A program made the position numbers and the translations under genes. Under the pieces are notes generated by a model. The model had not been told where the DNA came from. It searched no databases and worked only from the letters and a program-made list of their open reading frames with translations. This document shows positions 40,781 to 54,407 of a DNA stretch of 64,000 bases, in pieces (positions within the stretch are counted from its first letter, which is position 1; every line of letters starts with the position of its first letter). Location: positions 5,225 through 69,224 of IMG/VR virus record IMGVR_UViG_3300046529_000477. One strand, 5' to 3'. Origin of the DNA: a virus.

Positions 40781-41601
40781 TGGCATATCCCCTAACAGTA
40801 GCACAGCAAATACAGATAGGGCAAGTATCAACGTATTTGTCATTAACAGATATTACTAAAAAGAAGTTCTTAGATGGCATACCATATTTTGAACAACAGT
40901 TATCATTGCTGATAGCAATGGAAACTGATATACTTAATTGGCAATACGAATTAAATCCAAGTGATATAACATTATTTCAAGCAGGAGATTACTTATATGC
41001 TTTATGTGGAAGATATGCTATTGATGCACAAAATGCTATTAATGAAGGAGGGGTTATAATTACTCCGGTAACAGGTGTTGCTACATTCCTAATTCAATTA
41101 AAATCATATCCTCAATTTATTGTCGGTGCATTAGACTCACCAATGGTAGATGGTCAGGATACACTTATCATAACAGATGCTTTAGCAGTTGACCAAAGTT
41201 TACAAGGTGAAGTAGAAATTCATGTTGAAGGTGCAGAACAAGGCGAAGATTTATCAGATAGGTTAAGTTTCATTGCTACATACGCAACAGGGCAATATAC
41301 AATCATTTGGAATCAAGGGTTATCAAATGGGATGTTGGTTCAGATAAAATATCCCGTAAAAGTTACTTTGGTTTCTCAACAAACAAGTACTACAGGCAAA
41401 GGATTACAAGCAGTTTATGTTGTTGCTACCGTAACAGGAAACACATTAACTGTAATTGAATTAGGTACATTCATGTTTGCTCAAATACGTGGTGCAACCT
41501 ATGATACTTCTGTAATAACACAGACAGGGCAAGATTTGGATTTGACAAATGTAGGTGGTGTAACAGTAGGTGAATCTATTTTAATATTTTACTATCCATG
41601 A
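40780..41601 (+). CDS. Putative tail structural protein
   Basis: Helical N-terminus (YLYALCGRY) plus beta-rich C-terminus. Confidence 0.5.
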   Translation: MAYPLTVAQQIQIGQVSTYLSLTDITKKKFLDGIPYFEQQLSLLIAMETDILNWQYELNPSDITLFQAGDYLYALCGRYAIDAQNAINEGGVIITPVTGVATFLIQLKSYPQFIVGALDSPMVDGQDTLIITDALAVDQSLQGEVEIHVEGAEQGEDLSDRLSFIATYATGQYTIIWNQGLSNGMLVQIKYPVKVTLVSQQTSTTGKGLQAVYVVATVTGNTLTVIELGTFMFAQIRGATYDTSVITQTGQDLDLTNVGGVTVGESILIFYYP

Positions 41602-42626
41602 GGAAAATATTTTTATTCATATTATTAATTGTTTCCGTTTTTGTTCATGCACAAACTAAAACTTTATTGCCCCCTGTTGGTGGGACAAATACGATATATA
41701 GAATAGCAGGAGGCGCAATAGCAGATACAGTTCAATATCTACCTTCGACAGTTGGAATACCAACTCTTAATATGCTCAATTATATGGCTGCAAAAAGAGC
41801 AGCAGCAACACAAGTAGATACAGCAAATGATATTCCTTATTGGTATTCACCTAAATTAAACGCATGGTACACGATAACAGGCGGCGGCGGCACTGATACT
41901 GCAACTTTAGATGGCGGTGCATTTACAACAAGCAATGTGCAAGTAGGGTTTAATCCTGGTGCGCATATCACACCTAAACAATTATTGCTTGCAGTATTTT
42001 ACGGATTGCAGCCGCCAACAGCTACTCTTACGGGTGGAACTACCTTAGAATTAACAGCATCGCCAACAGTTACACAAACTTTAAATTGGGGTGCAGGAAG
42101 GCAATCAAACACCCCCATATTAAATTCAATCGTTGTTGCAGGAATATCACAAAGTTTTTCTCAACCGCCTTTAAATGGAACAGTAACAGGAACACAATCA
42201 GTAAATGTTCCCGCTAATACAACAACAACTTATAGCAATTTAGTAACAGCAAGTTTACAGACAGCAATAGCAAATACTACATTCACTTTCTTAGGCAAAA
42301 AATATTATGGACTTCTAACGGATACGACAGGTATAACAACAGGTTCACTAAATGCAAATATTATTGCTTTGGCAGGTTCAGCATTTGCCACGACAAAAAC
42401 ACTTGCAACAAATACAGGTGCAATAACAGGAACAGAATTTTGGTGTTATGCTTATCCTTCAAGTTTAGGAGATTTAACAGCATTGTCATTTAATAGTATT
42501 CCTGCATTAGAAGCAATGAATAAAATAACATTAAGTATAACAAACGCATCAGGATTTACGCAGAATTACTTGGTTTATTACAATAAGCAGGCGCAAACAA
42601 TATCATCAGATATAACAGCGCAATAA
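41598..42626 (+). CDS. Fibre-region protein with Sec signal peptide
   Basis: [18 protein letters not shown]|Q; Ig-like PTATL...KKYYG...YAYPSSLG. Confidence 0.7.
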
Positions 42627-42637
42627 AAAAATATATT

Positions 42638-51348: not shown

Positions 51349-51738
51349 ATGAATAAAATGAAAAATATTATCATCGCTTTAATTATAATCTTTATAGGCT
51401 TTCAATCTCATGCACAAGTAGATCAAAAATCAAGAGATTCTGTAGCCAACACAAATGACTTTCAAGTTAAAGTAAGAGAAGCTACATTATTGGCAGCTAA
51501 TCAGACGTTAGCGGACACAAGTCAACACACAGAATATATTTTACGATATTCTTTTTCACTTGTAAATGACCCACAGGGAAGATGGGTATTAGCTATGTCT
51601 TATCAAGTACTTACCAATCCACAAATAAATTATGATAGCCCTCAAAATGATATAGAGTTTGCGGTCAACAGTAATTTTGAAAAGATGGCAAGAGCAGCAT
51701 CAGGCGTAGTTGTTATACCACCCTCACACCAAGATTGA
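51349..51738 (+). CDS. Small fibre-associated protein with signal peptide
   Basis: MKNIIIALIIIFIGFQSHA|Q; FQVKV....NDIEFAVNS. Confidence 0.65.
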   Translation: MNKMKNIIIALIIIFIGFQSHAQVDQKSRDSVANTNDFQVKVREATLLAANQTLADTSQHTEYILRYSFSLVNDPQGRWVLAMSYQVLTNPQINYDSPQNDIEFAVNSNFEKMARAASGVVVIPPSHQD

Positions 51739-51743
51739 TAAAA

Positions 51744-54407
51744 ATGACAAAAAGTATTATAATAATTGTCTTGTTATTTATAGCTTTTATTTGTAAGGCA
51801 CAGGATAGTTTGCCAAAAGGTTTTCCTGTTCAAAAATGGAATGGGCGAATTGAAGCAACCTATGTACAAGAAGATAGCGGGCATATTCCTTCATTAAGAG
51901 ACACGCTTTGGCAGCCTCGTTTTTTAGGAACACAAGTAGTATGGTTTCATACAGGTGTAGATACTGCAATGTGGATTTATACAGGTTCACCAATCGGTGC
52001 TAAATGGGTAAGACAATTTGGTTTTCCTTCGGGTGGTGGTAGTAGCAATACAATTATTACAGTTCCAAATATCGCTGCATTACAACTGCAAACAGGTGCA
52101 GATGGTCAAATAGCAATAACGCAAGGTTTTTATAATCCTTCAGATGGCGGAGGAAGTATATTTTATAGAAACGCATCTTCACTTCAAGACACAGTTACAG
52201 GAATGATAGTGAAGTCAACACCATTAGATACCGGAAGATGGATAAATCTAATAGATAGAGGCAGCAGAATAAATGTTAAGCAATTTGGCGCAATCGGGGA
52301 TAGTGTTCATGATGACCAACCAATTTTACAAGTAGCAGTAGATTATCTTGAATCATTAGGCGGTGGTACAATGTATTTTCCAAAAGGGAACTATCATGTA
52401 CGATTGCCCGTTTTTCTAAGGAAAAATATGCATTGGGTAGGAGATGGCACAACGTCATACGTATTCAATGATAGGGATACACAACATTCAGTAAGAAATG
52501 GTGATGTATATGTTTATTTCATGGGTAATTTCAATGTAACCACTTATGGAAGCACATTACACTATACATCTTCAGATACTCTGATAGCCGCAAAAAATAA
52601 AATTCAGTTAACATCAGCAGAAACAGATAGCTTTCATATAGGCGGACTAATTGAAATAGAAAGCCCAACAGGATTTAATGGAAGTGGCGGATTCTTCAGA
52701 CCTTACTATGCAGTTATAAACAGAGTTACAGAAATTGATAGAGCAGCAGGAACAATAACAATTGAGCATCCAATGGATACAACTTTACCTGTTGCAAACA
52801 TTGGCATTTGTGATAAAATTGCTGTTGGTTCAGATACAGATGTATTAGGTCAACGGTATTATATAGCAGATAGATGTAGTTTAGATAACATGAGCTTTTC
52901 CTCTGCTGATTATGTTGCAAGACGTTATGGGGCATACGAATGTAACATAACCAACAACAGATACCATTCATCTAAAGGTGTCGGCGGAAATGGTTTAAGT
53001 TGGTGCAACTTCTTAAATAACTACCTTGAATTTACTTATAAAGCTATTGAATATGCCATGTATAGTAGCAATACACATATTGACCATAATACCTTTGTTT
53101 ACTATAATGGATTTGACGATGGTGTAATTGAAAGACCTGGAATTAAATTTGGTGAAAATGTAAGAAATAGTACTGTCAGTTATAACACTTTTATTTTTGG
53201 AGATGCTTACACAACTGGACCTGTAATTAGTTTTGACCACGCATTTGATAATGAAGTTGTAGGCAATAAAATATATGCACAGCACATAAACCAAAATGTC
53301 TTTGACGTAAGAGCAACCAATGACAGCGTAAGAATATTTGGTAATCTTTGCCTTAACAATGAAGCATGGGCAGATAGTGTGTTTACATTTATTAATCTTA
53401 CTCGTAGTTGTACTGCTTGTTGTGTAGATAACAATAGATTCATTGGTAATATATTTCATGGCACACCTTTACAACACGCATATTATCAAGGGGGCAGTAA
53501 TAATATTATATGGAATAATTCAGTAGATGCAGGAGATGTAAAAATAGACAGTGATGCCAATAATTTCATGGTGAATACAATGGGGGCTAATGGCAGAGTA
53601 CCACAGATAATGTTACCATTGAAACAATTTACTGCATCACCTATAAGTGGAGCAATAGAAAGAGATGCTACTAATTTATATTTTGTTGATAGTTCAAAAA
53701 TAAGACACAAAATAGAATACGGTGACACTGCAATAAATGTTGGTGACAGTGATTATTCAGCACATAGAACAGATAGAATACTTGTTGTTAATGCACATAC
53801 AGCATCGAGACAGATACATTTAGTTGTAGCTCCACTTGTACAATCGGGTACAAGATTGTTAGTAGCTGATTTTAGTGGAAATGCTTCTGATGTAGCCCCG
53901 ATAATTATTGTTCATGCAGGAAGTAATACAATAAATGGAGTAGCAGGAAATGTAAAAATTACTCAACCTTATGGATGGGTATCTCTAACGAGTGATGGCA
54001 TAAGCCAATGGAATTTTGACGCAGGTAAAGGCTATGCCATATTCGCACAACATCCTATTATATATACAGGAACAGCACCTTCGATAAGTGTAGGTGTAGG
54101 TGCAGGAAGTGGTTTTGCTGCGACATTAACCGGAAGTGATGGCGCAGGAACAATAAGTATCACAACAGGGACAGGATGCACAGCAGGAGGCAACATAATA
54201 ACAGTTACATTCAATACACCTTTACTTTATAATGCTATTGTAAATTTAACAGCACAAAGCCAAGCAGCAGGACAAGAGATTAGTAAATTCTTTATTGACC
54301 CCGCAGGAACAAGCGCAACCCAATTTAGAATTAAGAACACAGGAACGGCATTATTAGATAATGTTCTATATACCTTAAATTATACTGTCTCACAGCAAAC
54401 ACCCTAA
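51744..54407 (+). CDS. Tailspike-like pectate-lyase-3 beta-helix protein with signal peptide
   Basis: MTKSIIIIVLLFIAFICKA|Q; GFYNPSDGGGSIF, INVKQFGAIGD..HDD...LQ.A...GGGTMYFPKGNY. Confidence 0.8.
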   Translation: MTKSIIIIVLLFIAFICKAQDSLPKGFPVQKWNGRIEATYVQEDSGHIPSLRDTLWQPRFLGTQVVWFHTGVDTAMWIYTGSPIGAKWVRQFGFPSGGGSSNTIITVPNIAALQLQTGADGQIAITQGFYNPSDGGGSIFYRNASSLQDTVTGMIVKSTPLDTGRWINLIDRGSRINVKQFGAIGDSVHDDQPILQVAVDYLESLGGGTMYFPKGNYHVRLPVFLRKNMHWVGDGTTSYVFNDRDTQHSVRNGDVYVYFMGNFNVTTYGSTLHYTSSDTLIAAKNKIQLTSAETDSFHIGGLIEIESPTGFNGSGGFFRPYYAVINRVTEIDRAAGTITIEHPMDTTLPVANIGICDKIAVGSDTDVLGQRYYIADRCSLDNMSFSSADYVARRYGAYECNITNNRYHSSKGVGGNGLSWCNFLNNYLEFTYKAIEYAMYSSNTHIDHNTFVYYNGFDDGVIERPGIKFGENVRNSTVSYNTFIFGDAYTTGPVISFDHAFDNEVVGNKIYAQHINQNVFDVRATNDSVRIFGNLCLNNEAWADSVFTFINLTRSCTACCVDNNRFIGNIFHGTPLQHAYYQGGSNNIIWNNSVDAGDVKIDSDANNFMVNTMGANGRVPQIMLPLKQFTASPISGAIERDATNLYFVDSSKIRHKIEYGDTAINVGDSDYSAHRTDRILVVNAHTASRQIHLVVAPLVQSGTRLLVADFSGNASDVAPIIIVHAGSNTINGVAGNVKITQPYGWVSLTSDGISQWNFDAGKGYAIFAQHPIIYTGTAPSISVGVGAGSGFAATLTGSDGAGTISITTGTGCTAGGNIITVTFNTPLLYNAIVNLTAQSQAAGQEISKFFIDPAGTSATQFRIKNTGTALLDNVLYTLNYTVSQQTP

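Follow-up and report, generated by a model that had tools for sequence, protein, structure and literature searches.

Predicted Signal Peptides on Six Proteins of a Fibre and Spike Gene Block in an IMG/VR Phage Suggest Probable Maturation Outside the Cytoplasm

Introduction

Can the fibres and spikes of a tailed bacteriophage mature on the far side of the inner membrane, although tailed-phage particles assemble in the cytoplasm and these proteins are taken to fold and attach there? This question is raised by a 12.8 kb gene block (positions 41598–54407) in a 64 kb stretch of viral DNA, hereafter the window, which covers positions 5,225 to 69,224 of IMG/VR record IMGVR_UViG_3300046529_000477, a single contig of 69,224 bp. 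The block takes up 18% of the genome and consists of eight open reading frames (ORFs) arranged head to tail, six of which encode a protein that begins with a putative signal peptide (leader) followed by glutamine (Gln). The portal protein of this genome shares 21.6–24.5% identity (tblastn) with the portals of Flavobacteriia podophages, and it is therefore considered to belong to a short-tailed phage with a Bacteroidota host and without a close cultured relative. Based on the six leaders and on a Bacteroidota O-glycosylation motif that occurs in the six at about three times the chance number, the host-recognition proteins of the block probably mature outside the cytoplasm, that is, outside the compartment in which tailed-phage particles are built.

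The phage proteins that are routed through Sec include the coat proteins of filamentous phages, signal-bearing and signal-arrest-release (SAR) endolysins, Rz/Rz1 spanins, and the exclusion lipoproteins Llp and Bor. To our knowledge, no tailed-phage fibre or spike is found among these Sec-routed proteins, and filamentous phages, which lack a cytoplasmic capsid, are put together at the membrane. No description of leader-bearing tail fibres was found in the literature searched. In annotation practice, the absence of a signal peptide is treated as a mark of a phage gene, and its presence as a mark of a 'moron' or a host gene; a passage of the Hankyphage paper (PMC6199706), for example, uses the lack of signal peptides as an argument for phage origin. 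In Bacteroidota phages, such an annotation rule would misfile receptor-binding proteins.

Results and Discussion

Leader Peptides of the Block

The eight genes of the block are the following:

41598–42626, plus strand: g41598, 342 aa; leader (residues 1–18), sequon-bearing type-A N-terminal module (N-module) modelled with low confidence, two immunoglobulin (Ig)-like beta-sandwiches at about residues 140–342.
42638–43159, plus strand: leaderless HNH homing-type endonuclease (Pfam NUMOD4, 7e-15, and HNH_3, 9e-14; PHROG 59 at 5e-46).
43152–45443, plus strand: g43152, 763 aa; leader, beta-helix at about residues 74–326, C-terminal phosphoesterase at residues 539–745 (PF04185, 4e-29).
45454–46707, plus strand: g45454, 417 aa; leaderless beta-helix protein (Pfam Beta_helix, 6e-6).
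46711–49119, plus strand: g46711, 802 aa; leader, type-B N-module, Gly-rich linker, repeat-rich shaft, C-terminal knob.
49125–51347, plus strand: g49125, 740 aa; leader, pectate-lyase-type beta-helix starting about 8 residues past the predicted cleavage site.
51349–51738, plus strand: g51349, 129 aa; small leader-bearing protein.
51744–54407, plus strand: g51744, 887 aa; leader, type-C N-module, Gly-rich linker, tailspike-type beta-helix, C-terminal domain.

The N-termini of all six leader-bearing proteins follow the same plan: one to three basic residues, an uncharged core of 11–13 residues, a small −3/−1 pair, and then Gln. Cleavage is predicted at ..VHA↓Q in g41598, ..AKA↓Q in g43152, ..SFS↓Q in g46711, ..SFT↓Q in g49125, ..SHA↓Q in g51349, and ..CKA↓Q in g51744. 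A core of 11–13 residues has the length of that of a signal peptide and is shorter than a membrane helix.

Leaders were called with a loose heuristic rule of our own, complemented by conservation in homologues. Of the 100 non-overlapping ORFs (≥50 aa) of the 69,224-bp genome, the rule flagged 18 with a hydrophobic N-terminus; a −3/−1 site followed by Gln is present in six of these, all within the block, and none of the remaining 94 ORFs combines a leader with Gln at +1. The probability that six ORFs of this kind fall within one run of eight genes is about 2e-6. No comparable start was detected by the rule in 23 other proteins of the structural region (portal, capsid, tube, ejection and others), and the HNH nuclease and g45454 are the only leaderless products of the block. 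A preliminary description of the window had reported leaders followed by Gln for six of the seven non-nuclease ORFs of the block, and had stated that capsid, portal, ring and muzzle proteins are without them; its coordinates and N-termini agree with the present results.

The leaders are retained in homologues. A total of 47 homologues of g41598 were found; in the 31 relatives that were aligned (29–97% identity), the leader is present in all 31 and Gln19 is at least 90% conserved, while the 50–70 residues after Gln19 are barely alignable. The rule flags 40 of 46 members of this family. In the AlphaFold2 (AF2) model of g41598 (pLDDT 80), residues 2–18 form a helix, and residues 19–69 score below 50. 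Among the 18 homologues of g43152, a leader followed by Gln was recognized by eye in 14, and the mature start is conserved. As for g46711, 76 of the best 150 of its 1507 matches have a leader-like start, with a possible +1 Gln in 73 of those.

Two other export routes were considered and rejected. The C-terminal sorting domain (PF18962/TIGR04183-type) of the type IX secretion system (T9SS) was found in none of the six proteins, at E-values up to 0.01 for Pfam and up to 1 for NCBIfam, which argues against a T9SS route. A lipoprotein (signal peptidase II) reading was discarded because a conserved lipobox cysteine (Cys) is lacking: the leader Cys residues of g46711 and g51744 vary among relatives. 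With neither a T9SS domain nor a conserved lipobox, the expected location of the six proteins is the periplasm.

O-Glycosylation Motifs

Bacteroidota O-glycosylate the Ser or Thr of the motif D-(S/T)-(A/I/L/V/M/T), and do so in non-cytoplasmic proteins only (PMC12871550). Matches to this motif (D[ST][AILVMT], hereafter sequons) were counted in the mature proteins, and the expected numbers were obtained from shuffled sequences. Altogether, 43 sequons were found in the six leader-bearing proteins versus 13.7 expected (3.1-fold, z 8.6). The excess is individually significant in four of the six, namely g41598 (4 vs. 1.0 expected), g43152 (13 vs. 2.5), g46711 (11 vs. 3.9) and g51744 (10 vs. 3.3). 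The 23 leaderless structural proteins contain 19 sequons versus 27 expected (ratio 0.7). With the Asp of the motif replaced by E, N, Q, G, S, T, A, K or P, the ratio ranges from 0.45 to 1.37, and for the reversed motif it is 0.65. The result is unchanged when the sequences are shuffled in blocks of 30 or of 15 residues.

An internal control is provided by g45454, a leaderless paralogue of g43152 (28% identity between residues 74–326 of g43152 and 43–273 of g45454; E-value, 3e-17). It harbors a single sequon (1.4 expected) compared with the 13 of g43152, and none in the homologous stretch, where g43152 has four. The same dependence on the leader was observed among 149 homologues of g46711: the 75 that possess leaders contain 651 sequons versus 299 expected (2.2-fold, z 20.7), whereas the 74 without leaders contain 368 versus 356 and thus show no excess. 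A motif read only in the periplasm is thus under selection solely in leader-bearing proteins, which makes the sequon excess the strongest argument that the leaders are functional. The leader-bearing proteins of three metagenomic phages, L004, L005 and L008, also have more sequons than expected (2.8-fold, 1.8-fold and 1.6-fold, respectively). The sequons of the six are putative sites of glycan attachment.

Leader conservation, the leader-linked sequon excess, and the lack of a T9SS domain or a lipobox all argue for the export through Sec and signal peptidase I (SPI), with Gln at +1, that the preliminary description had proposed. Export is well supported on these grounds, and it is very probable that all six are genuine Sec/SPI substrates; their attachment to particles at lysis is a further step that we infer.

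Proteins Encoded by the Block

The bodies of these proteins had been described beforehand as mostly of the fibre or tailspike type. This holds for g46711, g49125 and g51744, in which a fibre or spike architecture was recognized; it is doubtful for g41598, with its tandem Ig-like domains, and does not extend to g43152, which falls into an exported beta-helix/phosphoesterase family, or to the orphan g51349. The body motifs named at that time were found again, NVK.FGA.G in g49125 and g51744, and GFY..DGGG in g51744. The latter protein matches Pfam PF12708 (Pect-lyase_RHGA_epim; 2e-13, residues 176–272), as well as PHROGs 14442 ('tail protein') and 2234 ('tail spike protein'). For g49125, a match was obtained to PHROG 32881 ('pectin lyase activity'; 3e-17, residues 29–149), and a tblastn search against phages gave four weak matches only. 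A tblastn search with g46711 returned a single match to a 74-residue module. The C-terminal knob of this protein is common to many proteins among its 1507 matches, which come from a representative search, and its residues 1–120, leader included, recur on bodies of 353–723 aa.

The PF04185 domain of g43152 belongs to the phospholipase C/acid phosphatase family. Among the relatives of this protein, PF18962 (T9SS) was detected on two cellular-looking ones and a GH5 cellulase on one, and the closest phage relatives (P0200 and P0201; 536–539 aa) are without the phosphoesterase. Its leaderless paralogue g45454 is presumably made and assembled in the cytoplasm.

The start of g41598 overlaps the stop of the upstream structural gene (40780–41601) by 4 nt, and no relative was found by tblastn against phages. 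Foldseek matches of its model are of the Ig/fibronectin type III (FnIII) kind, e.g., RbmA; these are only generic Ig-like hits, so no function follows from them. For g51349, a word-based search of 5.8 billion proteins returned the protein itself alone, no family was found in Pfam, PHROGs or NCBIfam, and the best Atlas score (0.82) is at chance level.

The HNH/NUMOD4 endonuclease gene is located between two fibre genes, with an 8-nt overlap between its stop and the leader-encoding start of g43152. It resembles a mobile element that has inserted into the fibre operon.

N-Terminal Modules

Between the leader and the body, g41598, g46711 and g51744 carry N-modules of three types, which are not tied to particular bodies. 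Module A was also found on 46711-type bodies, and module C on these as well as on 41598-type bodies. An hhalign alignment of modules A and C, with the leader included, has a probability of 96%. Leaderless versions of module B are found in P0060, P0098 and an Alteromonas podophage fibre of 676 aa. Such swapping of modules A, B and C corresponds to the mosaicism of tail-fibre anchor domains, here with a leader added at the N-terminal end.

A comparable exchange is seen in Cellulophaga phages. The first 118 residues of gp093 of the siphovirus phi10:1 are 83% identical to those of gp086 of the podovirus phi18:3, and the body of the same gp093 is 93% identical to gp081 of phi46:3. Leader-bearing fibre mosaics that cross morphotypes in this way are located at 44100–46433 of L010, 6545–8902 of L003, and 9317–11551 of L001.

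Leader-Bearing Proteins in Other Phages

In L004, one of the metagenomic phages, gene order matches that of the window from the terminase on, and each of the three ORFs after its homologue of gene 40780–41601 encodes a leader with Gln behind it. The head genes of L005 and L008 are different, yet these phages possess blocks of large leader-bearing proteins led by a homologue of g41598.

Leaders followed by Gln are also present in the blocks of large fibre/pectate-lyase proteins of phi46:3 (gp079–083), the podovirus phi18:3 (gp085–087; Pachyviridae), the siphovirus phi10:1 (gp091–095; Assiduviridae) and Ingeline (genes 31–34; Duneviridae). As in the window, the Cellulophaga leader blocks are located just upstream of small genes with hydrophobic stretches, and such genes follow the leader-bearing blocks of phi46:3, phi18:3, phi10:1, Ingeline, L005 and L008. 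Unlike the six proteins studied here, the Cellulophaga fibre proteins are without a sequon excess and a phosphoesterase fusion, and they share no detectable sequence similarity with the six. In the literature searched, no paper mentions the leaders of Cellulophaga phage structural proteins, and the string 'signal pep' has 0 occurrences in Bartlau 2021 (PMC8776804).

According to the GenBank records, gp085–087 of phi18:3 and gp091–094 of phi10:1 are each a 'structural protein; annotation based on experimental MS/MS proteomics analysis', and a leader followed by Gln is present in all seven. The pectate-lyase body of phi10:1 gp093 was found in 33 Cellulophaga phage records. It is leaderless in gp052 of phi4:1 (a 146-kb phage; 49% identity) and in gp097 of the crAss-like phi14:2 ('tail protein'; 44% identity), both of which are annotated by mass spectrometry (MS) too. 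Thus, one and the same spike body exists in a leader-bearing and a leaderless version, each of which is reported from particles. By analogy with these Cellulophaga phages, the six proteins of the window may likewise have a role in the virion.

Three known groups of proteins are useful for comparison. Classical tail fibres and tailspikes (phi4:1 gp052, phi14:2 gp097, and the fibre of Alteromonas phage R22Y) share with the block beta-helix depolymerase bodies, module B, Gly-rich linkers, C-terminal knobs and mosaic exchange, but they are leaderless and assembled in the cytoplasm. Bacteroidota SPI substrates that obey the Q-rule, a rule stated together with its stabilising effect in PMC10653852, resemble the six in the anatomy of the leader, in Gln at +1 and in the enrichment of sequons; these, however, are cellular proteins, whereas the genes of the six belong to the late structural operon of a phage of the lytic type. 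Lastly, five Q-rule genes of Porphyromonas gingivalis prophages are described in Matrishin et al. 2023 (PMC10367356), where they are given as of unknown function and read as host-modifying. They too are phage-encoded and predicted to expose Gln after SPI cleavage, but their products are neither fibres nor spikes and have no link to the virion.

Proposed Maturation Route

The following route is proposed for the block. The six proteins would be exported by Sec as precursors with Bacteroidota-type signal peptides and cut before Gln by the host signal peptidase I, after which the host glutaminyl cyclase would turn the exposed Gln into pyroglutamate (the Q-rule). They would fold in the periplasm of the infected cell, where most of them would, in this lineage, be O-glycosylated by the general system of the host, and they would be retained there, an outer-membrane route being lacking. 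Heads, tails and at least one leaderless spike (g45454) would be built in the cytoplasm, and the particles would meet the periplasmic pool when the holin step breaches the inner membrane. At this point, g46711, g51744 and probably g41598 would dock on the particle or on each other via their exchangeable N-modules, and the enzyme-type g43152 and g49125 would ride along or act free on the envelope or capsule. Cleavage, pyroglutamate formation, glycosylation, and the place and time of docking are steps that we infer; a blocked N-terminus and a glycan coat could protect the most exposed parts of the virion.

A more elaborate version of this route is rather doubtful. Here, finishing would be divided between two compartments, a Sec-exported, pyroglutamate-capped and glycan-coated adsorption kit docking after the holin opening, and phage glycosyltransferases possibly tailoring the glycan. 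A Pfam analysis of 52 ORFs scanned jointly yielded GT2, GT11 (fucosyltransferase family), GT47, two FkbM methyltransferases, Methyltransf_24 and an O-methyltransferase, as family counts for the whole set rather than as assignments to ORFs or coordinates. Such phage glycosyltransferases and methyltransferases might remodel the lipid-linked outer glycan put on exported proteins, and virion fibres would in that case wear a host-like or phage-specified sugar coat.

A periplasmic route, if true, would be a new step in tailed-phage assembly. Infectivity would then depend on host Sec, signal peptidase I, glutaminyl cyclase and O-glycosylation, all of which would be possible resistance loci, and virions could carry host-made glycans, with consequences for recognition, protease resistance and adsorption. 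The question is directly testable in the cultured Cellulophaga phages that share the trait.

Attachment to Particles and Alternative Explanations

That the exported proteins later attach to particles is proposed with moderate confidence. The main alternative, which is less likely and whose envelope version had already been raised in the preliminary description, is that the six are exported without becoming part of the virion. Their site of action would be the periplasm or envelope of infected cells, or else the lysate, in which they would be free. Their jobs could then be the cutting of capsule, exopolysaccharide or phosphodiester-linked glycans to free the progeny, the destruction of receptors on the dying cell and debris, or the blocking of superinfection, and the MS detection of leader-bearing proteins in other phages would be due to co-purification. 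The high enzyme content of the block (the phosphoesterase of g43152, and the pectate-lyase-type helices of g49125 and g51744) is in line with such a role, as are the constant vicinity of small lysis-like genes with long hydrophobic stretches and the presence of leaderless fibre candidates elsewhere in the genome (g45454 and the ORFs of 24860–28008).

Three further observations favor a non-virion role and, at the same time, weigh against docking on particles: g49125 is without an N-module; T9SS cargo occurs among the cellular relatives of g43152, a family that also includes the GH5 fusion; and nearly the same N-terminus is shared by siphovirus and podovirus fibres, which would be odd for a tail-specific docking domain. 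Other points that tell against the proposed attachment, or limit how far it can be generalized, concern the partner and the analogues. No docking partner can be inferred, the genes upstream of the block differing between the window, L005 and L008. The MS evidence consists of GenBank record notes on proteins that are not homologous to the six, and co-purification with vesicles or debris could explain the detection in Cellulophaga phages. The trait is also not universal, the fibre-type proteins of the related Elemovirus and Panino being leaderless.

The glycosylation part of the route has limits of its own. Within the block, the sequon excess is not significant in two of the six proteins, g49125 (4 vs. 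2.5 expected) and g51349. In the leader-bearing proteins of the Cellulophaga phages (L001, L003 and L010), sequons are fewer than expected (3 vs. 15.5, 3 vs. 9.7 and 5 vs. 12.7), and glycosylation would therefore be a trait of the lineage of this phage rather than a general one. In phi46:3, to which the first of these counts (3 vs. 15.5) belongs, the leaderless proteins contain 17 sequons versus 19 expected; the pectate-lyase body common to Cellulophaga phages is sequon-poor both with and without a leader. A leader-specific avoidance of sequons in Cellulophaga phages was considered and rejected, because the leaderless MS-annotated set of phi10:1 is also poor (3 vs. 8.1) and the body is poor in both forms.

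Several lines of evidence, on the other hand, speak against a purely non-virion role. All seven leader-bearing analogues of the two cultured phages are MS-annotated as structural, and phi4:1 and phi14:2 have the same body as a leaderless, MS-annotated virion protein. Module B belongs to ordinary tail fibres, the swapping of modules among bodies is a hallmark of fibre anchors, and the block occupies almost a fifth of the genome.

It is very improbable that the leaders are not used for export during infection. In that case, the precursors would remain cytoplasmic or be anchored to the inner membrane from inside, e.g., if Sec were shut down or overloaded at a late stage, and the hydrophobic helix would act as a tether, as a timing device, or as a structural plug of the particle. 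This would agree with textbook assembly in the cytoplasm, nothing direct being in its favor, and the helix at residues 2–18 in the AF2 model of g41598 is compatible with either reading. The hydrophobic cores, however, are too short to span a membrane, the −3/−1 site and Gln are conserved while the remaining N-terminus varies, and the periplasm-read motif is enriched 2–3-fold only in leader-bearing proteins and their leader-bearing homologues. Finally, although some starts were chosen at an internal Met (g43152 within ORF 43092, and g51349 and g51744 within TTG-started ORFs), the explanation of the pattern by chance or by a gene-calling artefact is effectively refuted by the clustering of all six in one run of eight genes and by dozens of homologues that keep the leader and start at the equivalent Met.

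Genome Context

The G–C content along the window is 27–38%. Replication-accessory and late genes form a single long block on the plus strand, from about 4 kb to 58 kb. Outside the leader-bearing block, the following features were identified:

31791–33926: large terminase subunit (PHROG match).
34513–36888: portal (PHROG match).
54839–55678, plus strand: three small genes (86, 108 and 76 aa), each with a long hydrophobic stretch, directly downstream of the leader-bearing block.

The podophages with matching portals are Cellulophaga phi46:3, phi13:2 and phi18:3 (Pachyviridae), Flavobacterium 'elemo' phages, and Maribacter phage Panino. Identity with the Pachyviridae phages phi46:3, phi13:2 and phi18:3 is 21.6%, a comparison that concerns a single gene; by eye only, the N-termini of some tube and ejection proteins also resemble those of Pachyviridae. 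No closer relative was found in a megablast search of 20 kb against the phage collection or in two scans of IMG/VR.

No significant family was found for the three genes at 54839–55678 in Pfam or PHROGs, and no endolysin family was detected among the ORFs scanned with Pfam or PHROGs, including those of 54411–57809. Judged by their position and hydrophobic stretches, these three small genes are the sole lysis candidates.

A second cassette of small beta-rich ORFs, all leaderless, is located at 24860–28008, between two large ejection-type genes. ORF 26341–27507, the only one of the cassette that was scanned, has no family match; the products of the cassette may be appendages built in the cytoplasm.

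ARAGORN predicted a tRNA-Tyr gene with anticodon ATA (4899–4976) and a tRNA-like gene with a four-base anticodon (57192–57263). Two ORFs encode Cpn10 (GroES) homologues, one of them at 12575–12844, and GroES/GroEL genes are also found in related flavophages. Upstream of the window, two small early genes (positions 582–989 and 1453–1911 of the contig) encode lipoprotein-like starts, with a hydrophobic leader ending in ..SC or ..AC, and are candidates for exclusion or host-modifying lipoproteins.

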